DNA of 32,000 nucleotides from positions 330,001 through 362,000 of the forward strand of contig NZ_CP043316.1 in NCBI RefSeq assembly GCF_008189405.1. Reading direction: 5' to 3'. The notes under the pieces were generated by a model. The model made no database searches. It was given only the letters and a program-made list of their open reading frames with translations, and was not told the DNA's origin. The DNA is from Candidatus Saccharimonadota bacterium (lineage in GTDB: Bacteria; Pseudomonadota; Alphaproteobacteria; CAJXXZ01; 1604HC). A program made the translations under genes and the position numbers. This document shows, one piece after another, positions 9,101 through 32,000 of the stretch (the first letter of the stretch is position 1; each line of letters starts with the position of its first letter).

Positions 9101-10765
9101 ATGGACCAAATTAAGAAATCTTTAAAATATCATTCAAATTTTCCTAAAGGGAAATGGGGAATGCACGCCACTAAACCTTTAACTTTGCAAGATATGGCAT
9201 TAGCTTATTCTCCTGGAGTTGCTGATCCTTGCCTAGAAATTGAGCGTGATTTAGAAACTGCTAAAGAATATACAGCAAAACAAAATTTAGTTGCTGTTAT
9301 TAGCAATGGAACAGCGGTATTAGGATTGGGAAATATTGGAGCACTTGCATCAAAACCTGTGATGGAAGGGAAATGCATTCTGATGAATAAGATGTCAGGG
9401 GTTTTTGGTGTTGACATAGAAGTTGATGAGAAAGATTCAGATAAAATCATTGAGATTATTAGAAAAATTTCTCCTACATTTGGTGCAATTAACTTAGAAG
9501 ATATTAAAGCTCCTGAATGCTTTATAATTGAAGAAGCATTACAAGATTTAGATATTCCTGTATTTCATGATGATCAACATGGGACAGCAATTGTTGCTAC
9601 AGCTGGAATTGAAAATGCATTAAAGCTATCAGGAAAGTCATGGGGCTCTGTTAAGGTTGTGGCAAATGGTGCTGGTGCTGCTGGTATTGCATGCTTAGAT
9701 TCTATGGTTAATATGGGTTTAAATCCTAACAATATTATGCTTTTTGATTCAAAAGGATTGATTAATGATACACGTTCTGACCTAAACAAATATAAGCAGA
9801 AATATGCTATAAATAAAAAATCATGCACATTAGAAGAAGCATTAAATGGTGCTGATATATTTCTGGGAATGTCCGCAGCAAAAGCATTAAAACCAGAGTG
9901 GATAGTAAATATGGCAAAAGATCCTGTAATTTTTGGACTAGCAAACCCAGAACCAGAAATAATGCCAGAATTAGCAAAAGAAGTTAGACCAGATTGCATA
10001 ATGGCTACAGGAAGATCTGACTATCCAAACCAGGTCAACAATATTTTATGCTTCCCATATATTTTTAGAGGAGCATTGGACTCTCAAGCAAAAAGCATTA
10101 ATAATGAGATGAAAAAAGCATGTATCAAAGCAATTGCTGAAATTGCAAGAAATGATAAAAGCTTTGGTACTAGTCATATAATTCCTAATTCATTAGATGA
10201 AAGATTAGGCTTGATTGTATCAAACGCTGTCGCTCAAGCAGCAATTGAAAGTGGTGCTGGTAAATCAGTGCCTAATTTATATGGAAGATATATAGAGAAA
10301 ATGCTTAATATAAATTCAGAGCGATATTTTAATATATATAATGGATCTAATCCTATAAATATTGATAACATTCAAACGGATATTCAATCATTTTTAAATG
10401 CATGGGAAACTCCAATCAAATCAGATTCAAATTCACAATATGTTATCAAACCTATGGAAAAATCTTGTAATGGTGAAAAATTGGTTTGGATTTTTGGCCT
10501 AGAATCATCTAATCCTTGGATAGCATATAGCACTAGTGAAAATTCTATAATTAAGGATATTAGATCAATATTAAGCTTGTCTAACATGCCACATATTCCA
10601 GTAGTAGATATAAAACAATGTAGAGATTTAGAAAAAAGAAATGATTTTTGTGGTAGAATTTCATTAAATGAGGGGTTAAAAATGGAATTCAAACCAGGAT
10701 TAAGAAATATAGCCTACCTTACATTGCTTTTAAGTGGTATTGCAAATGTCAAAATTACCTATTGA
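9101..10765 (+). CDS. maeB: NAD(P)-dependent malic enzyme, MaeB-type N-terminal module with a short unrecognisable C-terminal tail
   Basis: 554 aa. Residues 1 to about 410 carry MaeB-type motifs (YSPGVA, VISNGTAVLGLGNIG, FHDDQHGTAIV, GAGAAG, NPEPEI, NQVNNILCFPYIFRGALD). The SD AAGGAG lies at 9085..9090. The last 145 aa or so show no PTA-like motifs. Confidence 0.88.
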   Translation: MDQIKKSLKYHSNFPKGKWGMHATKPLTLQDMALAYSPGVADPCLEIERDLETAKEYTAKQNLVAVISNGTAVLGLGNIGALASKPVMEGKCILMNKMSGVFGVDIEVDEKDSDKIIEIIRKISPTFGAINLEDIKAPECFIIEEALQDLDIPVFHDDQHGTAIVATAGIENALKLSGKSWGSVKVVANGAGAAGIACLDSMVNMGLNPNNIMLFDSKGLINDTRSDLNKYKQKYAINKKSCTLEEALNGADIFLGMSAAKALKPEWIVNMAKDPVIFGLANPEPEIMPELAKEVRPDCIMATGRSDYPNQVNNILCFPYIFRGALDSQAKSINNEMKKACIKAIAEIARNDKSFGTSHIIPNSLDERLGLIVSNAVAQAAIESGAGKSVPNLYGRYIEKMLNINSERYFNIYNGSNPINIDNIQTDIQSFLNAWETPIKSDSNSQYVIKPMEKSCNGEKLVWIFGLESSNPWIAYSTSENSIIKDIRSILSLSNMPHIPVVDIKQCRDLEKRNDFCGRISLNEGLKMEFKPGLRNIAYLTLLLSGIANVKITY

Positions 10766-12110
10766 GATTCATAGATATGAAACTGCACAACGCCGAATAG
10801 CGTTTATTATATCTAGCTTAAATAGCAATTCAGTAATTACTACTAGAAATATTTTCAAGCATATACATGCTTCTGAAGCTGCTATAGTATTGCATTTTTT
10901 ATCTCCATCTCAGAGAGAAAAGTTAATCAATATTTTAGGTTCAGATTTTGATCCTTATATATTAGCATTTTTAGATGATGAGGTTCGTGAAGAAATTGTA
11001 GATAGTTGGGCTAATGATCAGTTAGGTAAGGCATTAAGTTCATTAAATGAACATGACGCTTTAGAGATTCTATCTGAATTGCATCCAGAACAAAGAAAAG
11101 CAATTTTAAAGTCAATTAGTCCTGAAATCAGAATTTTTCTTGAAGAAGGATTAAGCTATCCAGAAAAAAGTGCTGGACGTTTAATGTGTTATCAAGTTGT
11201 CGCACTGCCTCAGTATTGGACTATGGAAAAGGCAAAATCATTTTTAGCCAAAGCAAAGCACCTTCCAGAAGAGTTTTATTCTATTTTTATTGTGGATAAT
11301 TTTAATAAGCCAGTAGGATTTATAAAATTACAGGATGTTTACAGATATGCTAAATCAACTGTTTTATCTAGCTGTATGGAGGATGTTTTATTTGAAGCAT
11401 CTACAGATACAGATCAAGAAGAATTGGCTTTATTATTCAAGCAATATTCTGCAATTAATGCCCCTATTGTAAATAAGAATGGACGAATCGTTGGTGTGAT
11501 CAATGCAAACTTAATTGTAAATATTATCTTTAAAGAAAGTGCAGAAGATCTTCTGCATATGGCTGGTGTGGAAGACACTGGATTCCATGCAAATATCATA
11601 GAAACTGCAAGAGCAAGATTTAAGTGGCTATTTGTATCTAGTTGTACAGCAATGTTATCATCTAGTGTTATTGGTATGTTCCAAGGCGTAATATCTACTC
11701 ATCATCAACTTAGTATTGTTTTGCCAATGACTGCTGCGATGGGTGGTAATTCTGGTATGCAGGTTGTTGCTGTGATTATCAGAGCATTATCCAACCGACA
11801 GATTAGCACGATTAATGTATGGCGTGTTTTACGAAAAGAAGTATTAGTAGGGTTACATAATGGGTTTATATTTGCAATTCTATTTGGATTGATCTCATAT
11901 TTTTTCATATCCAAACAAATTGCGTTCGTACTAAGTATAGCGATCATGCTTAACATAGTATGGTCCAGTTTAATAGGAATGGTTTTGCCAATGATGTTAG
12001 ATAAAATGGGTTTAGATCCGGCATTAAGCACAGCATCATTTTTAACTGCTATGACTGACATGATGGGATATACTGCATTACTCCTTACAGCTTCATATTT
12101 CTTACTATGA
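10746..12110 (+). CDS. mgtE: magnesium transporter MgtE
   Basis: ORF 10734..12110. It has the MgtE N-domain, a CBS pair region and a C-terminal 5-TM domain with AAMGGNSGMQ and TDMMGY motifs. I prefer the ATG at 10746 (MSKLP...). Either start overlaps the maeB stop at 10763..10765. Confidence 0.9.
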   Translation: MSKLPIEIHRYETAQRRIAFIISSLNSNSVITTRNIFKHIHASEAAIVLHFLSPSQREKLINILGSDFDPYILAFLDDEVREEIVDSWANDQLGKALSSLNEHDALEILSELHPEQRKAILKSISPEIRIFLEEGLSYPEKSAGRLMCYQVVALPQYWTMEKAKSFLAKAKHLPEEFYSIFIVDNFNKPVGFIKLQDVYRYAKSTVLSSCMEDVLFEASTDTDQEELALLFKQYSAINAPIVNKNGRIVGVINANLIVNIIFKESAEDLLHMAGVEDTGFHANIIETARARFKWLFVSSCTAMLSSSVIGMFQGVISTHHQLSIVLPMTAAMGGNSGMQVVAVIIRALSNRQISTINVWRVLRKEVLVGLHNGFIFAILFGLISYFFISKQIAFVLSIAIMLNIVWSSLIGMVLPMMLDKMGLDPALSTASFLTAMTDMMGYTALLLTASYFLL

Positions 12111-12553
12111 TTTATATATTAAATTACATGCAACCTCTTCCAAAAGAGCTAAATATGATTAACATAAACTATATTATTAAATATTTTAATGGTAATGGGC
12201 TTGATGCTTATAGATTGTCCTATAATTAAGGTTCATTATTTTCCTTATATAGCAGCAAAAAAAATCTATTAAATAATACAATCAAGAGAAGAAATAATAA
12301 TACACTACGATTAGCATAACAGGTGAAATTGAAAAATGAATATAAAATATATGATTAGTAGCTTCTTCAGATTGCATATTCACATAATTTTGATTAACAA
12401 TTTAGTGCAAAGTTCAGCAATTATTAATTTGAAAGCACCGATCATTTGAATATTATAAAATACACACAACTTCATCATTACATTATTTTATTCGACAATA
12501 TCGCTTCCGTTTGTCAACAATTATCCTAAGATTTGAATATGTTTATGTTATAA

Positions 12554-12873
12554 ATGCCAGAAGCTTTTTATCTATATTCTATTAAGTTTCTTGAGAAACA
12601 TCCTCCTCCTCTTCAGTATCCACTTCATTCATAGCTACAGCTTTAAACACATTTTATTATATAAAATATGCCAGAAGCTTTTATCTATATTCTATTCAGT
12701 TTTTTGGGAAACATCCTCCTCCTCTTCAGTATCCACTTCATTCATAGCTACAGCTTTAAACACATTTTATTATATAAAATATGCCAGAAGCTTTTATCTA
12801 TATTCTATTAAGTTTCTTGAGAAACATCCTCCTCCTCTTCAGTATCCACTTCATTCATAGCTACAGCTTTAAA
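12554..12873. repeat. tandem repeat, 2 full units and one 93-nt partial unit, period 114/113 bp; every unit contains the last 66 nt of gyrA
   Basis: Units begin with ATGCCAGAAGC at 12554, 12668 and 12781. Unit 3 overlaps the real gyrA 3' end (12808..12873). Unit 1 differs from it by one extra T. Unit 2 differs by 3 substitutions around the ghost stop codon. Confidence 0.95.
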
Positions 12874-15354
12874 TAACTTATCATCATCTAATCTAGCTAA
12901 GCGTACCCCTTGTGTTTTTCTACCAGCTACACGTATATCATCAGAATTACATCTAATGATCTGGCCATTTTCAGTCATCATTAAAATTTCACTATCATTA
13001 TCAATTCTATATGCACCCATCACTTTTCCTGTTTTTTTAGTGACATCTAATGCAGAAACACCTTTTGCTCCACGTTTGGATCTTCTATAGTTACTTTCAG
13101 TGCTACGTTTACCATATCCATTTTCACTAATTGTCAAAATCATAGAATTGTCTTTTTCATTAATAAGTGTTGCTGATACAATTGTATTATCTTCTATACC
13201 ACTTAAATTCATACCAATCACACCATGTGAAGATCTACTATTAAATACTCTTACATCTTTAATAGAAAACCTTACAACTTTACCTTGTGATGAAGTTAAT
13301 AGAATATCATCTTCTTCACTACAAATCATAGCAGAAATCAATTTTTCATCACTTTCCAACTTCATGGCAATTTTTCCATTTGACCTAATGCCTTGGAAAT
13401 CTTTAATTGTGTTTCTTCGTACATATCCTTTAGAAGTAATAAAAATAATTGTTTGTTTATCATCAATTTGTAACGGCAATGCAAGTGAGCTCATAATACG
13501 CTCATTAGTATCAATAGGAAATAGGTTCACAAGCGCCCTTCCTTTACTCTGACCAGCATTTACTACAGGTAGTTTATAAACTTTCATTGAATATGAATAT
13601 CCAAAACTACTAAAGAAAATAACTTCTTGATGAGTGTTTGCTACAAACATATGTTCTACAGGATCATCAGAATCCATACCAACTTTTCCTTTTCCTCCAC
13701 GTTTTTGCAGCTTATATGATGATAATGGCATGCTTTTTACATACCCTTTAGTACTCAATGTAATAACCATTTCTTCAGATTTAATATAAGATTCATCAGT
13801 TGTTTCTTCCAAATTAATTTCTAATTCAGTTCTTCTTGGAGTACCAAACAATCTATTTATTTCTTCTAAATCCTCTTTGATAATTTTAAATCTTTCACTC
13901 TCATTATTTAGTATATGCAAATATTTTGTAATATTTTCACCAAGCAGTTGCAATTGATTCCACAGTTTATCTCTTTCTAATCCTGTCAATCTGCTTAATC
14001 TTAAATTCAATATTGCTTTGGCTTGCTCTTCTGAAAAGAAATATTTATCTACAGGTTCACAATTCTCACTAATACAATTTAAATAACCCTTAATATCATC
14101 CCAAGACCATTCCATTTTTTGTAAACGCAACTGTGCTTCTTGAGAATCTTGAGATGTTTTTATACAATAAACAACTTCATCCAACTTCTTCACAGCTAAA
14201 GATAATCCCCATATTACATGTGCTTTAACTCTATCTTGATTTAAAAAGAATTTTGTTTTTCTAATTAAGACCTGCTCTCTATAATCAAGAAAAATGTTAA
14301 GAGAGCTCTTCAAGCTTATTTGCTTTGGCTTATGATTATGCAAAGCAAGCATGTTTACATGCATTGCAATTTGCATTTGAGTAAATTTATATACCCTATT
14401 CATAATTAATTCTGGTTCTGCATCTTTTTTTAATTCCAAAACAACACGCATACCATCTTTATTAGATTCATCACGAAATGTGTGAATAGGTCCAAGAATC
14501 TCTGTTTGCATTAAATCTGCAATCTTATCCATCAAATTCTCTTTATTTACCTGGTATGGAATTGAAGTAATAACCAATGCATTTCTATTGTTTACTTGCT
14601 CATGATGCATTTTACCTCTTACAGTAAAGCTTCCTCTGCCTTTTGTATAAACATCAATCAAACCACTATTTTTGAAAATTATTCCACCTAATGGAAAGTC
14701 TGGAGCTGGCAAGTATTGCATTAAATCTATTGAGTTTAACGTTCTATCATCAATCAATGCACATGTAGCATTAATCACTTCAGACAAATTATGTGTTGGG
14801 ATAAATGTAGCCATACCAACAGCAATTCCACTAGCACCATTTACAAGTAAATTTGGGAATCGTGCAGGCAATACTTCAGGAATTTCTAATGTATTATCAT
14901 AGTTAGGATGCATATCAACTGTGTTTTTATCATAATCTTCCAAAAGATATTTTGCTATTTTTGATAAACGGGCCTCAGTATAACGCATAGAAGCAGGCTT
15001 ATCTCCATCAATAGAACCAAAGTTACCTTGCCCATCAATTAATGGTGAATAAATAGAAAAATCTTGAGCCATTCTAGTCATTGCATCATAAATTGCAGCT
15101 TCACCATGAGGGTGATATTTACCAAGAACATCACCAACGATACGAGCAGATTTTCTATGGGGATTTTCTGGCACACAATTTGTTTCAATCATTGAATATA
15201 AGATTCGCCTTTGAACTGGCTTTAATCCATCATACGCATCTGGAACTGCCCTACTAGCAATCACACTCATAGCATAATCTAAATAAGAAGATTGTAATTC
15301 ATCTTCAAAAACTTTTTGTGTGGGTTTGTCTATATTATCAACGTTCATATACAT
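12808..15354 (-). CDS. gyrA: DNA gyrase subunit A
   Basis: 848 aa. It has AMSVIASRAVPDAYDGLKPVQRRILY and the active-site Tyr context ASMRYTEARL. The GyrA box QKRGGKG in the C-terminal beta-pinwheel distinguishes it from ParC. The tail is acidic (DTEEEEDVSQET). Confidence 0.97.
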   Translation of the reverse strand: MYMNVDNIDKPTQKVFEDELQSSYLDYAMSVIASRAVPDAYDGLKPVQRRILYSMIETNCVPENPHRKSARIVGDVLGKYHPHGEAAIYDAMTRMAQDFSIYSPLIDGQGNFGSIDGDKPASMRYTEARLSKIAKYLLEDYDKNTVDMHPNYDNTLEIPEVLPARFPNLLVNGASGIAVGMATFIPTHNLSEVINATCALIDDRTLNSIDLMQYLPAPDFPLGGIIFKNSGLIDVYTKGRGSFTVRGKMHHEQVNNRNALVITSIPYQVNKENLMDKIADLMQTEILGPIHTFRDESNKDGMRVVLELKKDAEPELIMNRVYKFTQMQIAMHVNMLALHNHKPKQISLKSSLNIFLDYREQVLIRKTKFFLNQDRVKAHVIWGLSLAVKKLDEVVYCIKTSQDSQEAQLRLQKMEWSWDDIKGYLNCISENCEPVDKYFFSEEQAKAILNLRLSRLTGLERDKLWNQLQLLGENITKYLHILNNESERFKIIKEDLEEINRLFGTPRRTELEINLEETTDESYIKSEEMVITLSTKGYVKSMPLSSYKLQKRGGKGKVGMDSDDPVEHMFVANTHQEVIFFSSFGYSYSMKVYKLPVVNAGQSKGRALVNLFPIDTNERIMSSLALPLQIDDKQTIIFITSKGYVRRNTIKDFQGIRSNGKIAMKLESDEKLISAMICSEEDDILLTSSQGKVVRFSIKDVRVFNSRSSHGVIGMNLSGIEDNTIVSATLINEKDNSMILTISENGYGKRSTESNYRRSKRGAKGVSALDVTKKTGKVMGAYRIDNDSEILMMTENGQIIRCNSDDIRVAGRKTQGVRLARLDDDKLFKAVAMNEVDTEEEEDVSQET

Positions 15355-15732
15355 AGAATTATATGCGCATTATTAAGTGGTGTCTATGTCTTAAGTATGA
15401 TTAATTCAACCAAAAACTCTATTAATTTATATTAGTTATAAAATAAATTCTTATTCTATTATGCATACAAACTCAATATGGTTTGTTGTTGAGCTAATAG
15501 TAAAATTCTGATTTTATTATACATATAATTTATTATGCATATAAATTAATCAACAATTTGTCATCAAGCTATAATACAAATCTGAGCACATAATGAGCAA
15601 GATGATTCTTGATTTCTATGACTTGTCTTAGGATATAAAATTGCATTCATATTTTCCATCATTTGATGCATTTCTTTCATGTTTGCTTCTTTTCTTTTTT
15701 TACTTTCTGCTAAAAATTCTACTACATTGCTA

Positions 15733-16392
15733 TTATTGCTGCAGATTAGATGTAAATTCACGCATTTTGCTACGTATTTTTTGTGATAATTTTCTTTGGT
15801 TATTGCTATATGGTATATTATGCAACAATACATTATCTTGCATTATAAATTTATAACCTAATATTTCCTCTGATAATAAATGTGATGCATGAATTGTATA
15901 ATCAAAATATCCTCCATTAAATTGAAGTTCACAACCTTCAATCAAGCAAACATTGCCTTCTCTAAATAACCAAAATATATCATTATGAAAAGCCCATGGC
16001 CTATGGCGATTATTTAGCAGCATATACTCACTACGCATTAATATAATTGCATTTTCTGCATCTTTATGTAGATTTTTTGCTTGATCATAAGTAATTAAGG
16101 TTGTATTAGATTCATTAAACTCACCCCTTGGTAGAAAATCTCTTTTTCTAACATTTTTCGGCTCAATAAAATTTGTTAAATTTTTACCATCTAATATTGA
16201 ATTACAATTTATAGCTAAACCTAAATAAATAATTTTTCCATCTTCTTCTTGAAATATTTTTTCATATTTACCTTGGTCAACTAGCTTTTCTGCAATTTTC
16301 ACATTAAAAGTAAAAGCGTGTACATCTGTATTATATATGAACATTGAATGCACTTTGGAAACTATTAAAGCGCATAATATAAATCTTCTCAT
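15733..16392 (-). CDS. hypothetical exported protein
   Basis: 219-aa ORF with a hydrophobic N-terminus (MRRFILCALIVSKVHS). I recognise no motif. The ORF length is the main support for coding. Confidence 0.5.
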   Translation of the reverse strand: MRRFILCALIVSKVHSMFIYNTDVHAFTFNVKIAEKLVDQGKYEKIFQEEDGKIIYLGLAINCNSILDGKNLTNFIEPKNVRKRDFLPRGEFNESNTTLITYDQAKNLHKDAENAIILMRSEYMLLNNRHRPWAFHNDIFWLFREGNVCLIEGCELQFNGGYFDYTIHASHLLSEEILGYKFIMQDNVLLHNIPYSNNQRKLSQKIRSKMREFTSNLQQ

Positions 16393-16501
16393 GTATTATT
16401 TATACACAAAATATCAATAGTTTATAACATCTATAGCATGTAAAATTTGAAAAATATAACTGTTTAGAATATTATAAACAATATTTACAATATGATATTA
16501 A

Positions 16502-16975
16502 TTAAAATGGAATATCAATATCAGATTCTTGTTTATCAAATGGCATATTATTGTTTGATTCAGAAGGCTCTGAAGATTGAGCATTAAATGAAGAACCATA
16601 TTCAGAATTACCGTCATCATATTGCTCAGAACTATCATTTCTTGATCCAAACATTTTCAAATCTACCATTTCTACTTCAACTGTAGTTCTTTTTTGTCCC
16701 ATATCGTCAACCCAAGATGTTGGTCTTAGTCGCCCTCTAATATATACAAGACTACCTTTTTTAAGATATTTAGATGCAATATCAACTAATTGTGGGTTAA
16801 AAACCGCAATTCTATGCCAATCAGTTCTAGAAAATTTCTTTCCTGATTCCTTGTTCATCCACTCTTCAGATGTTGCAACAGAAAATTTTGCTATCTTGCT
16901 ACTCTTACCTTCTTTGATTTCAGGATCATTTCCTAAGTTTCCAATGATCATAACCATATTTACAGACTTTACCAT
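16502..16975 (-). CDS. ssb: single-stranded DNA-binding protein
   Basis: 157 aa. It has an OB-fold N-terminus (NMVMIIGNLGNDPE..., TDWHRIAVF), a low-complexity acidic/Ser linker and the canonical C-terminal tip DIDIPF. Confidence 0.95.
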   Translation of the reverse strand: MVKSVNMVMIIGNLGNDPEIKEGKSSKIAKFSVATSEEWMNKESGKKFSRTDWHRIAVFNPQLVDIASKYLKKGSLVYIRGRLRPTSWVDDMGQKRTTVEVEMVDLKMFGSRNDSSEQYDDGNSEYGSSFNAQSSEPSESNNNMPFDKQESDIDIPF

Positions 16976-17221
16976 GCCCGGATTCTAACACATGAAAAAA
17001 TACAATACAATTAATAATATAATTTCATTTAATATTTATTATTAGTACAGAAATCACGTGTAAAAACTATAGAAAATTTAAATCTTTATAAATTAATAGA
17101 TTAAATATCTTATGATGCAAATATCACTTCAAAAACTATAAATCAAACTATCATAAATTAAATTATAGTATGTAAATTTATATAATCTATATAATAAATC
17201 AATAATGAACCACATGATTAA

Positions 17222-17229
17222 GGGGGGGG
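17222..17229. repeat. G8 homopolymer (C8 on the minus strand)
   Basis: The sequence is AGGGGGGGGA. It lies 14 nt past the terminase stop codon and about 250 nt upstream of the ssb start. It is the longest G/C run I saw in the window. Confidence 0.9.
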
Positions 17230-17242
17230 AAGAATATACTAT

Positions 17243-18493
17243 TCATATAATTGAAGAAAAGATTCTATTAGTTTTATTAATATGATTAATTCCAATCACA
17301 AGCGCATCTACACGATCAGGGGATTTACTAAAACCGGGAAAGGATTTCATTTGTTTTTCTAGCTCTGTAAAAGTACCAATATGAAAAACTCTTCTATGAT
17401 CATATAGGCATGCTATCGGTTGTGCTCGCATAATCTTGTTATGTACAGATCTAATGCCTTGAAATCTCACCATTCTATTCTGCATTTTAATCAGCTGTTC
17501 TATCATGTCTCCACCCTGATTAATCTCTGCAATCACATTATTGGTTTTATATTTTTGGCATAATTCTGCACAAACTTTCGGCCACTCTGACATAGACCAT
17601 TTCCCACTTTTATCTTCTAGTACATAAAACTCATCGTTTTTCTTACCTACCACAATAATGCCAGTTTCATCACTATTTTCATTATTTGTAACAGCAGGAT
17701 CTATGGAAATTATAATATTGGATAATTGAGATATATCTGATGTGGACATTTCTTTCCTTAGAATATTATTATCTGACCACATTGTGATTTTATCTAATAA
17801 TTCACCACTAATTTCTTGCTTACCAAAATTTGTTCCCTCATATTCATTTTTAATATAACTAAGATATTCTTTAGATAAATTTAGCTTGTTTTCCATTGTA
17901 TTACCACTAGTATAATGCACATCACTCCTTTTAATGATTTTATGTAATAAAGGTATTGGCTTAGGTGTAGTAGTGACAATAATCTTTGGAATCCCTAATC
18001 GCATTGTCATCATTAATTGATCCCATGCTTCATCTAAATTATTAAATTTTGCCAATTCATCTACCCAAGCTAGATCAAATTGTGGCCCCCTCAAGCTTTC
18101 ATAAGAATCAGCACTATGTATTTGGGCAATAGCACCATTTTTCCACTTTAATATATTTTGTGAGGCAAAGAATTTTGGCTTTTCTTTATTCGAATACACA
18201 CTTAATATTCCGCTTTGACCATCAACCATGATTTTTCTCACTTCTTCTTTGGTTTTTCCTAATAAACAAATGTTTTTATATCCCATCTGAACAAATTGTT
18301 TGATTGATTCTGATCCTGTACGTGTTTTACCAAAACCTCTTCCAGCTAATAGTAACCAAATTCTCCAGTCCCATTGTGGAATTTTCTGATTATCACGTGC
18401 TTGCATTCTCCAATCATACTTTCTTTCTTCTTGGTTAATTAACTTTATCCCTAAACTGTATATCTCTTCTAATAATTTTATATTCGCATGCAT
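17243..18493 (-). CDS. phage/GTA-type terminase large subunit (RcGTA g2-like), orphan
   Basis: ORF 17243..18568. I prefer the internal start MHANIKLL (ATG at complement 18491..18493). It has the Walker A-like LLAGRGFGKTRTG preceded by the W-rich WDWRIW segment, Walker B LAWVDELAKF, and a C-terminal nuclease-like region (ISIDPA..., SPDRVDALV). These are typical of alphaproteobacterial GTA TerL. Confidence 0.82.
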   Translation of the reverse strand: MHANIKLLEEIYSLGIKLINQEERKYDWRMQARDNQKIPQWDWRIWLLLAGRGFGKTRTGSESIKQFVQMGYKNICLLGKTKEEVRKIMVDGQSGILSVYSNKEKPKFFASQNILKWKNGAIAQIHSADSYESLRGPQFDLAWVDELAKFNNLDEAWDQLMMTMRLGIPKIIVTTTPKPIPLLHKIIKRSDVHYTSGNTMENKLNLSKEYLSYIKNEYEGTNFGKQEISGELLDKITMWSDNNILRKEMSTSDISQLSNIIISIDPAVTNNENSDETGIIVVGKKNDEFYVLEDKSGKWSMSEWPKVCAELCQKYKTNNVIAEINQGGDMIEQLIKMQNRMVRFQGIRSVHNKIMRAQPIACLYDHRRVFHIGTFTELEKQMKSFPGFSKSPDRVDALVIGINHINKTNRIFSSII

Positions 18494-25455: not shown

Positions 25456-27339
25456 ATGGAAAAAATAATTAACAAAACACAACAAGGAACATCAAACAGC
25501 CAAAAAAGGCCATTTAATAGAAATAAAAAAAATGTTCCATTCAACAAAAAAGGGATGTCATTTAATAGAAATGCCAAAGCTAATAGTGATATAGAGAAAG
25601 CATCATTTGATATAAGCAGTATTGACATGAATTCTTTATGCTTTATGCCATTAGGTGGAGCTGGAGAATTTGGACTTAACTTAAACTTGTATCATTGCAA
25701 TGGAAAATGGTTATTAGTAGATTTAGGAATGAGCTTCGAAGATATGCCAGGATCCAATATAATACTACCAGATATTAATTTTATCAAAAAATTAGACAAA
25801 AAAGATATTATGGGATTGGTAATCACTCATGGACATGAAGATCATATTGGAGCTATTCCTTACTTAATCCAAGAATTAAAGATTCCTATTTTTGCAGGTC
25901 CATTTACATCTTCTTTAATAAAAAGAAAACTAGTAGATAATAATATTAAAGCAACCTTAAATACTGTAAACGTTGGAGAAACATTTTCACTAAACCCATT
26001 TGAAGTTAAGCTTATTAATGTAACACACTCTATTCCTGAAAGCTCAATGGTATATATAAAAACACCTTTAGGTAATATTATGCATACAGGTGATTGGAAG
26101 CTAGATAATAGCCCTGTCACTGGAGAAAAAACTGATATGGAATCATTGGAATCTGCTGCAAAAGATGGAATATTAGCTGCTGTATCTGACTCAACAAATG
26201 CTATGACTTATGGAGAGACTGTATCTGAAGAAACTGTTAAAGAGTCTATTAATGAAGTACTATCAAAAGTTGATAGAAAAAACCGTATAGTTATTGGTTG
26301 CTTCTCATCAAATGTTTCTAGGATAGATTCATGTGCTAGATTAGCACAAAAATATGGAAGAAAAGTTGCGTTAGTTGGAAGATCCATCCATAAAATCAAA
26401 GAATCAGCTTATGAGCATGGGTATTTTGCTAACTTACCTGAATTTTTAACTGAAGAAGAAGGATTCAAAACATCTAAAGATAAAATTTTATTTATTTGCA
26501 CAGGATCACAAGGGGAAACAAACTCTGGACTAAAAAGAATGTCTGAAAATGACCACCCTAGAATTAAATTAGATAAAAGTGACACGGTTATAGTTTCAGC
26601 TAAAACTATTATAGGAAGAGAAAAAGAAGTATCAGGAATGTTGAATAATTTTGCAAGAAATAATGTAAAAGTAATTACATATTCTGAAGATGCACCTATA
26701 CATGCATCAGGTCATCCTGTAAGATCAGATCTAAAGAAATTATATACATTATTAAAGCCTAAATTTTTAATTCCTGTTCATGGAGAAAGATTACATCAAA
26801 ATGCCCATGCTGAACTTGGAAAAGAAATGGGAATAGAGCCTGCTGTTATAAAGAATGGTGATATATTAAAAATTGAACAATCTAGCATGAAAATCATTAA
26901 TAACTTTCCTATCTCTAAATCTGTATTAGATGGTAAGGTAGTGGTTCCATATGATGGAAAAACCATGACTGAAAGATATTGGTTAGAAAATGGATGTATT
27001 TTCGTGAGCATACTAATTGGAAACAGAGGATATTTCAAATTAATAGCAACATTTTCAGGAATATGTGAGCAGGATGATATTTTAAGAGACAAAGTAAAAG
27101 AAAGAATTAAAACTGCTATTATGTCATTAAACCAGGATGATAGAAAAGTTCAAAAGAAACTTGCAAGCGTTATTAGGAAAGCAATTAGGTATGTAATGTT
27201 TGAATTAAGAGGAAAAGATCCTGCTGTATTTATCCATTCAACTATTTTGGACAAAAAACCTGCATCTCCAAAAGAAGAAAAAGAAGGGGTACAAATTGAC
27301 ATTGATGAAGAAAGAGAATCTGATTCATTAGGAGATTGA
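25456..27339 (+). CDS. rnj: ribonuclease J (metallo-beta-lactamase / beta-CASP family)
   Basis: 627 aa. It has MPLGGAGEFGLN, the HxHxDH motif (THGHEDHIGA), and beta-CASP motifs (TGDWK, HASGH, PVHGE). An SD-like GAGAGG lies 5 nt before the ATG at 25456 and supports the long form, which has an N/K-rich N-terminal extension of about 57 aa. An alternative start is M58 at 25627. The C-terminal tail is acidic. Confidence 0.9.
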   Translation: MEKIINKTQQGTSNSQKRPFNRNKKNVPFNKKGMSFNRNAKANSDIEKASFDISSIDMNSLCFMPLGGAGEFGLNLNLYHCNGKWLLVDLGMSFEDMPGSNIILPDINFIKKLDKKDIMGLVITHGHEDHIGAIPYLIQELKIPIFAGPFTSSLIKRKLVDNNIKATLNTVNVGETFSLNPFEVKLINVTHSIPESSMVYIKTPLGNIMHTGDWKLDNSPVTGEKTDMESLESAAKDGILAAVSDSTNAMTYGETVSEETVKESINEVLSKVDRKNRIVIGCFSSNVSRIDSCARLAQKYGRKVALVGRSIHKIKESAYEHGYFANLPEFLTEEEGFKTSKDKILFICTGSQGETNSGLKRMSENDHPRIKLDKSDTVIVSAKTIIGREKEVSGMLNNFARNNVKVITYSEDAPIHASGHPVRSDLKKLYTLLKPKFLIPVHGERLHQNAHAELGKEMGIEPAVIKNGDILKIEQSSMKIINNFPISKSVLDGKVVVPYDGKTMTERYWLENGCIFVSILIGNRGYFKLIATFSGICEQDDILRDKVKERIKTAIMSLNQDDRKVQKKLASVIRKAIRYVMFELRGKDPAVFIHSTILDKKPASPKEEKEGVQIDIDEERESDSLGD

Positions 27340-27406
27340 AAACTTATTAAAAAAGCTGTATACTGCATGTATATCAATAAATTTTGAATAATTGGAGGAT
27401 AATTCG

Positions 27407-27589
27407 ATGGCAGTTCCTAAAAAACGAGTTTCGATTAATAAAAGAAGATTAAGACATTCTAATAGTAGAGTTAAATTACCTAATGTTGTAATTTGTACAT
27501 GTGGAAAATATAGATTACCACATCATGTATGCAAATCATGTGGAATGTACAAAGGAAGACAAATTCTAGATATTAAATCAAAAGAATAA
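27407..27589 (+). CDS. rpmF: 50S ribosomal protein L32
   Basis: The protein starts MAVPKKRVSINKRRLRHS... and has Cys pairs CTC...CKSC (zinc-ribbon type). The SD GGAGGA at 27394..27399 lies 7 nt upstream of the ATG at 27407. The track ORF starts 15 nt earlier. Confidence 0.95.
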   Translation: MAVPKKRVSINKRRLRHSNSRVKLPNVVICTCGKYRLPHHVCKSCGMYKGRQILDIKSKE

Positions 27590-27595
27590 AAGAGC

Positions 27596-28570
27596 ATGAA
27601 GAAATTTTCCATAGATTGTATGGGAGGAGATTATGGTCCTCAGGTTTTGCTTGATTCTGCCTCTCATATATTAAAAGAATATGAAGATCTGCACTTACTG
27701 TTTTTTATAGATAAAAATAGTGAATTCAGCATAAAATGTTTAGAGCCCTTTAAACATAGAATAGAAATCAGGAAATGTGATAATTTTTTGAAAGCTGATA
27801 AATCTTTATTATCTACATTAAAAAACTTCAAGTCATCAACAATGTATGCAGCGTTACAATCTGTATCTACAGGTGAAAGTAATGCAGTATTCACAGTTGG
27901 TCATACTGCTCCGTACTTCATATTAGCAAAAAAAGTTTTAGGTAGCCTAGATGGGTTAGATAGATTGCCTTTGGCTGTACTAATTCCATCAGTTAATGGG
28001 CATAAAGTATTAACTGATATAGGTGCAAATCTTGAATGCTCTGAAAATGACTTATATAATTTTGGCTTATTAGGAAAAGCATTTGCTACTAGCGTATTAG
28101 GAATTGAAAATGCAAGCGTTAGCTTAATTAATGTTGGGCATGAAGAAACTAAAGGCACTAGTGTTTTGAAGAATGCATCTAATTTATTTAAGAAAAATAT
28201 AGATAAAAATTTTAAAGGGTTTATAGAGGCTGATCAAATCTTTACATGTGAAGCTGATGTTATTGTAACAGATGGATTTTCTGGAAATTGTATTTCTAAA
28301 TCATGTGAAGGAACATCAAGGTTTATTATGAACAAATTCAATAAATATTGGATTGTACGCAAATTAATGTCTATGTTTTTACATAATGCAGATAGATATA
28401 ATGGTGCTGTCTTATTGGGGACCAAAGGGTTGTCAATTAAAGCACATGGTTCTTCAAAAATGCCATCATTAATCAATGCATTACGTACTACATATAAGTT
28501 TGCTGATAAAAACAAATCACTTACTAATAATCTAAACTCTATTGACTTTGCGTCAAATGCATTGCGATAA
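27596..28570 (+). CDS. plsX: phosphate acyltransferase PlsX
   Basis: 324 aa. It has the N-terminal DCMGGDYGP motif, VTDGFSGN, and the conserved rpmF-plsX-fabH gene order. Confidence 0.92.
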   Translation: MKKFSIDCMGGDYGPQVLLDSASHILKEYEDLHLLFFIDKNSEFSIKCLEPFKHRIEIRKCDNFLKADKSLLSTLKNFKSSTMYAALQSVSTGESNAVFTVGHTAPYFILAKKVLGSLDGLDRLPLAVLIPSVNGHKVLTDIGANLECSENDLYNFGLLGKAFATSVLGIENASVSLINVGHEETKGTSVLKNASNLFKKNIDKNFKGFIEADQIFTCEADVIVTDGFSGNCISKSCEGTSRFIMNKFNKYWIVRKLMSMFLHNADRYNGAVLLGTKGLSIKAHGSSKMPSLINALRTTYKFADKNKSLTNNLNSIDFASNALR

Positions 28571-28578
28571 TTTCAATC

Positions 28579-29511
28579 ATGATAAAAAACACAATGCTAA
28601 ATAATATTGTTAGTAATACAAATAACAATATGATGATAAGTGATATGGGCATTTCAGTACCAGAAAACCTTGTACATAATAATGATTTGCCAGAAAACTT
28701 AGATACAAATCATGAATGGATCCAGCAAAGAACAGGAATAGAAACTAGATATATAGCAAAAGATGAAACCACATATTCCATGGCATATAATTCTGTAAAG
28801 CATATGAAATTTAAAAATTTAAAAATCATTATAGTTGCTACATCAACTCCGGATATGGCATTTCCTTCATGTGCGTCTTATGTACATGAAAAATTGGAGT
28901 TAGAAAATGATGTTATGTGCTTTGATGTACATGATGCATGTAATGGATTCGTACAAGCAATGGATATTGCATTGAAATACTTAAAAGATTTTGAAGAATA
29001 TTCTGAAGTATTAGTAATTGGAGCTGAGACAATGACTAAACTCCTAGATTGGAATGATAGAGGCACAGCAATATTATTTGGTGATGGAGCAGGATCAATC
29101 TTACTCAATAATACGCATGGAGAAGTTTTATTTAGATCCTCAAAAAGCATAGCAAGCTATGACTCATTAAACACAAGCACAGGCACAGTTAAAATGAATG
29201 GGAGGCATGTGTTCAAAAATGCTGTTCATAGCTTCTCAGAAGATATAGCAAATGTCATGGCTGATGTAGGGAAAGTAGATTGGTTCATTCCCCATCAAGC
29301 TAACTTACGCATAATAGAATCTGTAATAAAAAACACAAATTTCCCTACAGAATCTGTAATTTATAATGGAAATAAATATGGAAACACATCTGCAGCTTCA
29401 ATACCATTAGCATTATTCGATTTTTTCCATAAAATCAAATCTGGTGACACAATATTACTCAGTGCTTTTGGTGCAGGACTACGTGGAAATAGCTTGTGTA
29501 TCAGGATATAG
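28579..29511 (+). CDS. fabH: 3-oxoacyl-ACP synthase III
   Basis: It has DTNHEWIQQRTGIETRYIA, the active-site Cys context (HDACNGFVQAMD), the His context (IPHQANLRI) and the Asn context (YGNTSAASIPLAL). Alignment to the E. coli FabH N-terminus suggests the true start may be the MMISDMG methionines at 28630/28633. Confidence 0.9.
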   Translation: MIKNTMLNNIVSNTNNNMMISDMGISVPENLVHNNDLPENLDTNHEWIQQRTGIETRYIAKDETTYSMAYNSVKHMKFKNLKIIIVATSTPDMAFPSCASYVHEKLELENDVMCFDVHDACNGFVQAMDIALKYLKDFEEYSEVLVIGAETMTKLLDWNDRGTAILFGDGAGSILLNNTHGEVLFRSSKSIASYDSLNTSTGTVKMNGRHVFKNAVHSFSEDIANVMADVGKVDWFIPHQANLRIIESVIKNTNFPTESVIYNGNKYGNTSAASIPLALFDFFHKIKSGDTILLSAFGAGLRGNSLCIRI

Positions 29512-29733
29512 CACACCTTTAAGCTAAGTTATATATTTATGTTAAATTATATATATTGAGATATAAGAAAATTAAAATACTATCATATTGAAAAATTAAA
29601 AACAGCATTGCATCATACATAAAATTTCATTAACCTAACTAAAGCTTTGAAAAAGTATGAATTAATAATAATTAATAATCTAAAGGTAAAAATGTTATAT
29701 AAAATTAAAAAGCATACTAAAAATTAGGACATA

Positions 29734-29769
29734 ATGCCTTCATATTAAAAAATGTCTTCATATTAAAAA
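29734..29769. repeat. 18-bp tandem repeat, 2 units
   Basis: ATGCCTTCATATTAAAAA is followed by ATGTCTTCATATTAAAAA, with one mismatch. It lies in the long fabH/tRNA-Thr spacer. Confidence 0.7.
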
Positions 29770-30035
29770 ATCAAAAATGCATAATAACTCCATACAAAAC
29801 TTCATTAAACCAGCTCAAATTTTAGAAAGCACAAATAAGTAGTATATTAGTACGTAAAATATACTAAAGTTTAAATATGAAAACACATGAAAGGTTTATA
29901 TACAAAACCTATTAATAGAAATACAACGTACACTTTTATCTATGCCATTGGAGAGATATGTACAATACACACATTATCTACGAAATGTATGATTGTAAAC
30001 TTTGCTTATCAATTCTTAAATTAATAAGCAAGTTC

Positions 30036-30165
30036 TACAAGCTCATGCTATTCGCTTGCTTAATCTATATAGTAAATTCCTTATGCCATTGGAGAGATTT
30101 TACAAGCTCATGCTATTCGCTTGCTTAATCTATATAGTAAATTCCTTATGCCATTGGAGAGATTT
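30036..30165. repeat. 65-bp tandem repeat, 2 exact units; the second unit contains the 3'-terminal 17 nt of tRNA-Thr
   Basis: 30036..30100 equals 30101..30165 (TACAAGCTCATGCTATTCGCTTGCTTAATCTATATAGTAAATTCCTTATGCCATTGGAGAGATTT). A third, isolated copy of TATGCCATTGGAGAGAT lies at 29941..29957. Confidence 0.93.
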
Positions 30166-30220
30166 GAACTCTCGGCCTCTCCCTTACCAAGGGAACGCTC
30201 TACCCCTGAGCTACAACGGC
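30149..30220 (-). tRNA. tRNA-Thr, anticodon GGU
   Basis: Hand-folded on the minus strand: GCCGTTG-TA-GCTC-AGGGGTA-GAGC-G-TTCCC-TTGGTAA-GGGAG-AGGCC-GAGAG-TTCAAAT-CTCTC-CAATGGC-A. It is 72 nt and CCA is not encoded. It is a GC-rich island. Confidence 0.9.
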
Positions 30221-30504
30221 ATAAATAAATTGATCCCATAAAAATACAATAAAAACAAGATACATATATATAAAACAACACATAATTAACATGCTTTTTA
30301 TGTTTTGAGCTATACATTACTCCAATTTATCAACATTTATAAAATAACATAACAATACTTAATAAAGATATGGCATTTCTATTTATTTGCCAAATTAAGA
30401 CTTTTTTTCATCTAAATTTACATAAAATTATATATAAATTTTAGTTTTTTTTTACTTTTTTGCCTAAAAATGTTTTTATTAACTTATGGATAGGAGAAAG
30501 TTCT

Positions 30505-31326
30505 ATGAAAGTCCTTCTAATAGAAGACGATAAGGCAGTAGCATCTGCGATCATTGCAATGTTGAAATCACAAAGTATCATTTGTGACCATGATATAAAT
30601 GGTCAAGATGGATTTGATTCTGCAAGATTATCAGATTATGATGTAATAATTTTAGATATGATACTACCAGATATAAGAGGTGAAGAATTACTAAATAGAA
30701 TTAGAGCCTGCGAAATCAAAACTCCAATTATTATTTTGTCATGCATTTCTGAAACAAATCAAAGAATTAAAGCGCTATCTGATGGAGCTGATGATTACTT
30801 GCCAAAGCCATTTGATAAACACGAATTGCTTGCAAGAATAAATGCGATTGTTAGAAGGTCTAATGGGCATGCAGCATCAGTTATTAGAATAGGAACATTT
30901 GAAATAGATTTACAACGTAAAACTGCTTCTATTGCTGGGAGAAACCTGGTACTAACTAAAACGGAATATAATATACTAGAATTATTAGCTAGAAGAAAAG
31001 ATTCTTTTTTACATAAAGATTCATTCCTAGATCATTTGTATAATTCTGATTGCAATGAACCTGGTAGAAAAATCGTTGATGTATTTATGTGCAAATTACG
31101 TAAGAAACTTTCTAATGCATTAGGTGACTCTAAAAATGATGATAATAGCCCAGCTATTGCTACGTCATGGGGGAATGGGTATAGATTAGATCAACGTAAA
31201 AATTTAGCAGATTATTTACTCCCCAAAAACAAAACCCAAACTAAGCAAATTTCAGATAATCAATTTAATAATAAGCATGATTTTATCAACTCTAAATTAA
31301 GTAAAAAAATTAAAATAAGCAGTTAA
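30505..31326 (+). CDS. ctrA: OmpR-family response regulator, CtrA ortholog
   Basis: ORF 30460..31326. I prefer the ATG at 30505 (MKVLLIEDDKAVA...) with the SD AGGAG at 30492..30496. The receiver domain has the phospho-acceptor context VIILDMILPD. The winged-helix block TKTEYNILELLARRK...IVDVFMCKLRKKL...WGNGYRL closely parallels Caulobacter CtrA (GKEYQMLELLSLRK...IIDVFICKLRKKL...WGRGYVL). Confidence 0.82.
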   Translation: MKVLLIEDDKAVASAIIAMLKSQSIICDHDINGQDGFDSARLSDYDVIILDMILPDIRGEELLNRIRACEIKTPIIILSCISETNQRIKALSDGADDYLPKPFDKHELLARINAIVRRSNGHAASVIRIGTFEIDLQRKTASIAGRNLVLTKTEYNILELLARRKDSFLHKDSFLDHLYNSDCNEPGRKIVDVFMCKLRKKLSNALGDSKNDDNSPAIATSWGNGYRLDQRKNLADYLLPKNKTQTKQISDNQFNNKHDFINSKLSKKIKISS

Positions 31327-31465
31327 AATTTTATAAACATTACCTATTCTATAAAGCATATTGTTCATTTTATTCTAATTAATATTTTGTAATAAGATAT
31401 TAATGCATTAAAGAGGTCACACTTTAAATTTGACCTGCATACCTAAAGCTGATAACCTTTCAATA

Positions 31466-32000
31466 ATGATTAATTGTTTTAATGTTTTTTTTGAATCATA
31501 TATTTCGGTATTTTTTATTTTCAACGCGTTTATGAATATATTTATTATAATCTCATTTACTCCCCATATGAATTTCATACAAAGACAAAATACTATTAGA
31601 AAATCTATGCTTGTTGCTGCTGCTGCAGTGTTTTTATTTGCAATCATAGGGCAGTTAATGCTTGATGTTCTAAACGTTACAATGTCTGCTATGAAATTAA
31701 CGGGAGCAATACTGATTGGTCCAGCTGCATATGATATGGTTGTGGGACATTCTATAGATAATAAAAAAGAACACAAAAATGATATGCACTTCTTCCCTAT
31801 AGGAGTCCCAACACTTGCTGGACCTGGAGTATTCACAACAGTATTAATGATTCTAAAAAATGGGGGAGCTGCTGATTTGATTCCGTCAATATTAGGCATA
31901 ATTGCAGCACTATTTACAACGTATTTTGTAGTTAATACAGGAAATAGGTTTTTCAGCACTATTAACAGCTCATATATACGTATGATGAGTGTGTTTTTCG
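31466..32000 (+). CDS. MarC-family (UPF0056) integral membrane protein; the 3' end lies beyond the window
   Basis: Not in the ORF track because it is an edge ORF. Hand translation of the frame starting at the ATG at 31466 gives MINCFNVFFESYISVFFIFNAFMNIFIIISFTP...RKSMLVAAAAVFLFAIIGQLMLDVLNVTMSAMKLTGAILIG...DMHFFPIGVPTLAGPGVFTTVLMI..., which includes the family-typical FPIGVPxLAGPG block. An in-frame TAA lies at 31409..31411. The listed minus-strand ORF 31417..31959 is its antisense shadow. Confidence 0.72.
   Translation, partial: MINCFNVFFESYISVFFIFNAFMNIFIIISFTPHMNFIQRQNTIRKSMLVAAAAVFLFAIIGQLMLDVLNVTMSAMKLTGAILIGPAAYDMVVGHSIDNKKEHKNDMHFFPIGVPTLAGPGVFTTVLMILKNGGAADLIPSILGIIAALFTTYFVVNTGNRFFSTINSSYIRMMSVFF

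Follow-up and report, generated by a model that had tools for sequence, protein, structure and literature searches.

Candidatus Cytomitobacter primus, a member of the Holosporaceae, is an alphaproteobacterial endosymbiont of the diplonemid Diplonema japonicum, and its genome consists of one contig of 622,357 bp with 30% G+C. [quoted passage not shown] The plus-strand genes on the fabH side comprise an RNase J-like gene, rpmF, plsX and fabH itself, while an OmpR-type response regulator (from about 30460/30505) and a MarC-family gene lie on the other side of the tRNA. Because fabH and the tRNA converge, the 637-nt spacer is a 3' flank at both sides. Below, the segment from the T-loop to the 3' end of a tRNA is called its tail, and a copy of the tail outside the gene a ghost. 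In window coordinates, the features are as follows.

28579-29511, plus strand: fabH (open reading frames, Pfam)
29512-30148, no strand: convergent fabH-tRNA spacer, 637 nt (open reading frames, Pfam)
29941-29963, minus strand: older, lone tail copy, G53-A73 plus 2 nt of trailer, with 21/23 matches and both changes in the T-loop
29993-30040, minus strand: AT-rich hairpin with 22-nt arms and a 4-nt loop, adjoining the units (inverted-repeat search)
30036-30100, minus strand: distal 65-bp unit, an exact copy, with the ghost tail at 30084-30100 followed by the copied trailer at 30036-30083 (TRF)
30101-30165, minus strand: proximal 65-bp unit, the real tail A57-A73 (30149-30165) plus a 48-nt trailer (30101-30148) (TRF, repeat search)
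30149-30220, minus strand: tRNA-Thr(GGU), 72 nt, CCA not encoded (Infernal/Rfam RF00005, 69.4 bits, manual cloverleaf numbering)

The tRNA-Thr cloverleaf features an acceptor stem GCCGTTG/CAATGGC, a T-stem GAGAG/CTCTC, a T-loop TTCAAAT (positions 54-60) and the discriminator A73; ARAGORN calls the gene, as tRNA-Thr(ggt), at 30148-30221 of the minus strand. TRF delineates a tandem array at 30036-30165 with a period of 65, 2.0 copies, 100% matches and 0 indels. Read in the sense of the tRNA, the unit opens with A57, the C56|A57 border lying in the T-loop, and extends via A73 through the 48-nt trailer, and the inner ghost tail matches A57-A73 of the tRNA at 17/17 positions. Both units are located 3' of the tRNA on its sense (minus) strand, and the older ghost likewise. 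An initial annotation, made from the letters of the window, had described 30036-30100 and 30101-30165 as identical units, had placed the last 17 nt of the tRNA at 30149-30165 and their ghost at 30084-30100, and had interpreted the pair as a tandem duplication covering the tRNA 3' end. The exact 2.0-copy array and the Infernal/Rfam boundaries bear out all three statements, and ARAGORN and Infernal concur that the repeat reaches into the tRNA, to A57.

The 17-mer TATGCCATTGGAGAGAT, composed of 2 nt of trailer and 15 nt of tRNA, occurs three times in the window, with starts at 29941, 30082 and 30147 (the copy in the real gene therefore occupies 30147-30163), against a shuffle mean of 0.04 matches and three matches in 0/100 shuffles. 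The 65-nt unit shows no fold beyond that of its shuffles (z = +0.52), matches no family in an Rfam search that returned the tRNA only, and has no second locus in a genome-wide search of C. primus. The same holds for the spacer part of the unit, for which a search for further copies had been proposed: the genome holds no second copy of the 48-nt spacer or of the 219 nt on its left side. A dispersed repeat family was considered and rejected, a 17-nt match at 412214 lying inside an open reading frame and looking like chance.

The third tail copy had been reported at 29941-29957 in otherwise unrelated sequence. The copy is present and its flanks are unrelated, but its extent had been underestimated, the similarity continuing to 29963. 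It spans the whole T-loop back to G53, beyond the border of the 65-bp unit, and comprises 15 identical tRNA nt, or 17 when the 2-nt trailer is counted. Its interpretation as a decayed tandem unit did not withstand analysis, since no similarity links its flanks to the tRNA trailer: when the 200 nt after the older ghost were compared with the 120 nt after the real tail, the local score fell below the mean of the shuffles (p = 0.996). As the tail is 21/23 identical and the flanks are unrelated, uniform decay is excluded. An old tandem unit of 141 bp was rejected as well, the sequences after the real tail and after the ghost lacking homology.

Both ends of the 65-bp duplication fall within inverted repeats. 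The distal breakpoint (30036) is located in the outer 5 bp of the hairpin (30036-30040), and the proximal one, C56|A57, in the loop of the T-arm dyad. Microhomology at the junction amounts to 0 nt, since the array is exactly 130 bp long; the array flanks read GTTC|...|GAAC, and the bases preceding the two units have 2/3 nt in common (TTC/TTT). As RNA, the hairpin region (29985-30045) folds with -18.7 kcal/mol in the tRNA sense (z = -5.27) and with -12.9 kcal/mol on the opposite strand (z = -2.85); the hairpin at 29993-30040 may act on the tRNA transcript as a terminator or as a processing hairpin. A terminator scan revealed no canonical terminator, including between the tRNA and the units, and a promoter scan no signal above chance in the spacer. 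Another small tandem repeat lies in the same spacer (window 29733-29771, 18 bp x2.2, 95%), as would be expected if local duplications are tolerated there.

To place the locus in its family, six genomes of the Cytomitobacter/Nesciobacter family, namely C. primus, four complete relatives and G004 minus its first 400 kb, were scanned with ARAGORN, TRF and crude longest-ORF calls; each species is represented by a single genome, and the genomes are not independent of one another. Ghosts were sought by matching the last 15 nt of each tRNA, with at most 2 mismatches, within 500 nt. Downstream tail ghosts were found at 15/205 tRNAs, with 0 upstream and 0 antisense, against 33/7076 in a control that compared tails with the flanks of other tRNAs. 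When 15-mers were slid over whole tRNAs, recurrence in the gene's own flank was confined to windows in the last 23 nt, the remaining matches being adjacent tRNA genes with similar arms. Ghosts accompany 10/24 tRNA-Ser genes vs 5/181 other tRNAs, and the genome G006 has none. Within C. primus, further tail ghosts follow tRNA-Ile(tat), Arg(cct) and Ser(gct). A candidate ghost of tRNA-Leu(gag) in the window was discarded as a chance AT-rich match within coding DNA, and no ghosts were found behind the 5S rRNA and tmRNA genes. Several of the tail ghosts belong to perfect or near-perfect tandem arrays (TRF) that, like the Thr array, start in the T-loop:

tRNA-Ile(tat), C. primus: 49 bp x5.4
tRNA-Ser(tga), G001: 77 bp x6.3
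tRNA-Glu(ctc), G001: 89 bp x5.6
tRNA-Ser(cga), G002: 69 bp x2.2
tRNA-Ile(tat), G003: 80 bp x1.9

Seven arrays overlap a tRNA, and in six of them, the Thr array included, the overlap is 15-22 nt. In aged arrays the tails are 13-15/15 identical while the spacers are near-random, a difference partly biased by how the ghosts were found. At the distal ends of several arrays, and at the older Thr ghost, a tail copy gives way to unrelated DNA within 1-4 nt. The spacers between ghosts contain no other piece of a tRNA in sense, and the units were thus rejected as decayed copies of whole or partial tRNAs, their spacers having no similarity to the rest of the tRNA. What is special and specific to tRNAs is that the tail from the T-loop to the 3' end is re-copied alone, and always downstream.

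Some of the sister loci display further features of their own. The complement of the tail is significantly present in 3-4/15 spacers, though not at Thr. Behind tRNA-Arg(cct) of C. primus (G000:C1:259057-259131, minus strand, outside the window), an 83-nt unit x1.6 ends in the gene's own tail about 160 nt downstream, and its spacer holds a 9-nt exact tail complement, GGAGGGATT; similar anti-tails follow Ser(gct) in C. primus and Ser(cga) in G001. Judging by their complementarity, the anti-tails would close a minihelix-like stem. Three tRNA-Ser arrays from two species have in common the motif GGGAAGAACGAGA (GGGAAGAACGAAA in the third), which is otherwise absent from those genomes at the search stringency:

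G001:C1:521096-521649: tRNA-Ser array with the motif
G002:C1:326462-326687: tRNA-Ser array with the motif
G002:C1:582955-583130: tRNA-Ser array with the motif

The common motif suggests that Ser genes whose tails are similar have exchanged units, or else that the arrays descend from one ancestor.

Among known systems, the locus comes closest to the tRNA-linked repeats (TLRs) found in Escherichia coli, which Egan and Landy first described in 1978 and Rudd treated again in 1999 (both as cited in PMC8144298). Stenum et al. [quoted passage not shown] Examples are the 178-bp units x3.1 at tyrT/tyrV (rtT/rttR, tpr) and rrA/rrB/rrF behind 5S rRNA (PMC8144298). Our own inspection of E. coli K-12 (NC_000913.3) showed that the tyrV array (178 bp x3.1), which contains the annotated rttR and tpr, has its start in the T-loop at A58, that its units each begin with the last 19 nt of the tRNA and that the array stops right after a tail copy. 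The tyrT-tyrV spacer (NC_000913.3 1285500-1288500) further contains a lone 19-nt tRNA-Tyr tail with unrelated flanks, which parallels the isolated Thr ghost.

As in E. coli, the Thr units follow a tRNA gene immediately and in its own orientation, they end in a copy of the last 17-19 nt of the gene, and their number (two, within the range of 1-5 per locus) and occurrence at several loci per genome are alike. Unlike the E. coli TLRs, to which they have no sequence relationship, the Thr units are shorter (65 and about 141 nt vs 100-180) and carry a tail without CCA; this tail is shorter than the E. coli tails because CCA is not encoded. Ghosts of 5S rRNA or tmRNA are absent from C. primus, and the host is an endosymbiont with a 0.62-Mb genome without mobile-element enzymes. 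Structurally, the Thr locus is of the same build as the E. coli tRNA-linked repeats.

Our preferred reading, which we hold to be probable, is that the Thr locus consists of units of TLR build, and that the 65-bp pair arose from a very recent replication or recombination error, without any mobile element, and is tolerated in the 3' flank. It is founded on the anatomy of the units, the recency of the pair, the absence of element enzymes and the recurrence of the T-loop border at other tRNAs of the genus. The older layer would have comprised, in this order, the tRNA, the 48-nt trailer, the strong hairpin, about 35 nt and the tail copy at 29941-29963. Within it, the segment that begins at A57 and takes in the first 5 nt of the hairpin's foot would then have been duplicated head to tail, giving the 65-bp pair with its 0 substitutions. 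The bacterium's own replication or recombination machinery was probably at fault, through template switching at a stalled fork or unequal exchange between sister strands, with both ends of the duplication at hairpin-forming DNA. The copy would persist because the spacer is a convergent, promoter-free 3' flank and the gene is left intact. We infer the slippage itself (stalling, switching), the role of the two hairpins and the neutrality of the copy from this arrangement. A junction microhomology of 0 nt is unusual for slipped-strand mispairing and thus speaks against simple slippage, and a simple tandem duplication leaves both the constant T-loop border and the ends in which a tail is followed by unrelated DNA unexplained. 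Also weighing against this reading are the modest, about 2.4-fold enrichment of tandem repeats over tRNA 3' ends and the equal copy number of the unit in two assemblies of the strain.

Two candidate causes were discarded on comparative grounds. A loss of DNA polymerase I is not the cause of the duplications, because the polymerase domain is absent in 13/13 genomes searched in the order, including the ghost-free G006; the sole Pol I remnant in C. primus is an open reading frame for a 284-aa 5'-3' exonuclease (G000:C1:191752-192606), and recA and mutS are retained in this genome. A constant orientation relative to replication was rejected since arrays occur on both replichores and in both orientations.

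Taken alone, the Thr locus is an ordinary recent duplication beside an intact tRNA, and its value lies in its context. The TLR build has been known in E. coli since 1978; here it is present in a genus whose 0.62-Mb genomes gave no match to the mobile-element enzyme families searched, and units are formed and replaced there on a timescale comparable to that of species. This argues that an element-encoded enzyme is not needed for the build. Cytomitobacter hence offers a minimal system for asking how the T-loop border is set. For annotation, a note of caution follows: duplicated tRNA 3' ends alone are no evidence of integrated elements.

An alternative that we regard as doubtful holds that the units are functional TLR RNAs, co-transcribed by read-through, processed at the 3' end under the direction of the tail, and acting as small RNAs or as a buffer for processing or termination, with the tails under selection. 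It would account for the tails that are nearly identical where spacers are near-random, for ghosts that are always sense and downstream, for the several sister arrays that end just past a tail, for the minihelix-like stem that the tail complements in 3-4/15 spacers could form, and for the concentration of ghosts at tRNA-Ser. Some E. coli TLRs are indeed transcribed and processed, and the repeated 3' end has been discussed as a processing signal (PMC8144298). However, TLRs are without known function in E. coli except for three 5S-linked ones, which bind Hfq and CsrA (PMC8144298). The Thr units themselves have no anti-tail and fold no better than their shuffles, four relatives show no conserved counterpart at the orthologous locus, and the identity of the tails is in part an ascertainment effect.

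It is likewise unlikely that the tail is a discrete module copied by the core machinery, be it replication, repair or Xer-type recombination, under guidance by the structure of the T-arm dyad, and that the same process makes the E. coli TLRs. If it were true, the set of about 520 genes would shorten the list of candidate makers, because the units would have been made with these genes, among which the integrase, transposase, reverse transcriptase and homing-nuclease families searched gave no match.

Prophages and genomic islands that integrate at tRNA genes reportedly use att sites with a T-loop sublocation. Such sites resemble the Thr locus in that direct repeats from the T-loop to the 3' end flank an insert and the intact tRNA lies on the 5' side, and direct repeats of the tRNA 3' segment do bracket the Thr inserts (48 and 124 nt). 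The tail copies could accordingly be imagined as attL/attR-type scars of an integrated element that was almost fully deleted and later amplified locally. A core that runs from the T-loop to 1-4 nt past the 3' end, and a succession of tail, insert, tail and unrelated DNA, fit tyrosine integrases that target the T-loop, as do the flanks of the older ghost, unrelated to the trailer. We nonetheless consider this history very unlikely. The inserts measure merely 48-124 nt, contain no open reading frame and no recombinase domain, and have no match elsewhere in the genome; the locus has neither integrase nor cargo. PF00589 is represented by exactly 2 genes in each of 7 family genomes, and the two tyrosine recombinases of C. 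primus (at 209.6 and 306.7 kb, about 150 and 50 kb off) are XerD- and XerC-like, these being their best NCBIfam models, below the curated cut-offs. Searches of the C. primus genome for resolvase, reverse transcriptase, GIY-YIG, HNH and DDE transposase (DDE_Tnp_1) gave no match, and the genome paper records very few mobile elements.

Comparison with relatives points in the same direction. At the orthologous tRNA-Thr loci of four relatives (three congeners and one of another genus), there is no ghost, no 3'-end tandem repeat and no island. In G003 the gene order is kept around a syntenic spacer of 431 nt, whereas in the more distant G006 (G006:C1:18038-21149) tRNA-Thr(GGU) is inverted between the same neighbours, fabH and the response regulator, as a one-gene inversion. 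The spacers of the genus relatives are too diverged to align with that of C. primus, and a metagenome scan with FabH yielded best matches of at most 42% identity, hence no second strain or close relative. The ghosts are species-specific and therefore younger than the genome reduction common to all four species (about 620 kb). For the 65-bp pair, an att scar is disfavoured by the perfect tandem with its copied trailer, a structure that does not result from integration; an integrase is unlikely as the maker of the older ghost and of the class. The initial annotation had ranked a remnant of an island behind a tandem duplication, and the XerC/XerD-like recombinases, the short AT-rich inserts and the empty orthologous loci uphold that ranking.

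Its wider proposal, that all three tail copies stem from one gene-end tandem-duplication process as seen at gyrA, with the lone ghost as an older decayed unit, fared less well and is in our view highly improbable. The gyrA array is located in the same window:

12554-12873: gyrA-end tandem repeat, 113 bp x2.8, 96% identity, re-copying the last 66 nt of gyrA (TRF)

Intergenic tandem repeats are moreover numerous in the genus, with 9 to 47 intergenic arrays per species in the four Cytomitobacter genomes. We compared the high-identity tandem repeats of four Cytomitobacter congeners with a null model that places repeats at random outside wholly coding DNA. At tRNA 3' ends, repeats were ~2.4-fold more frequent than expected (7 observed vs 2.94, P = 0.023), while none lay over tRNA 5' ends (0 vs 2.92). 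Protein-gene 3' ends showed no excess (23 vs 26.7), which speaks against a process common to gyrA, and repeats within 30 nt of protein-gene 5' ends showed a ~4-fold deficit (7 vs 26.1; as low in 0/1000 shuffles). The latter looks like the removal of harmful copies rather than an attraction to gene ends. Given a 5' deficit without a 3' excess, the "gene-end duplication" is therefore mostly survivorship, copies in 3' flanks being those that persist. Survivorship does not explain the copying of the tail only, the T-loop border or the arrays that end after a tail. Overlaps with protein genes range from 4 to 80 nt, unlike the narrow cluster at tRNAs, and the flanks of the lone ghost, as described above, lack any residual homology beside a well-preserved tail.

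Two further systems resemble the locus by description. Ehrlichia ruminantium, an AT-rich, obligately intracellular alphaproteobacterium, reportedly harbors tandem repeats of variable copy number and truncated gene fragments; head-to-tail duplication of noncoding DNA there takes in gene ends, so that dead fragments come to lie next to intact genes. It belongs to another lineage than the Holosporaceae, the C. primus genome is far smaller and gene-dense, and copy number varies there, whereas the Thr array is equal in two assemblies of one strain. To our knowledge, a specificity for tRNA tails bordered in the T-loop is not part of the description of E. ruminantium. In the Douglas-fir chloroplast, direct repeats are said to derive from a partially duplicated tRNA gene, so that a partial tRNA copy gave rise to a minisatellite in a small, AT-rich, recombination-poor genome; this is an organelle, however, and the likeness is one of description, not of borders or polarity.

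An assembly artefact in the form of a collapsed or expanded repeat, for which nothing speaks beyond the general risk that repeats carry, has a negligible probability, as a second assembly of the same strain (OX638200.1, GCA_951805245.1; 622,378 bp, PacBio HiFi, Sanger Tree of Life pipeline) agrees base for base with the 622,357-bp one across the locus. The identity extends over window positions 25579-32000 (6.4 kb) and 9808-18354; the copy number of the 65-bp unit is equal in both assemblies of this single strain and the gyrA array is identical, and therefore neither array is an assembly fault. Two genes from gyrA, on the minus strand, lies a large-terminase gene (Terminase_6N/6C, window ~17243-18354), which presumably belongs to the gene-transfer-agent cluster of these endosymbionts. 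Such a cluster has reportedly been found in a study of them.
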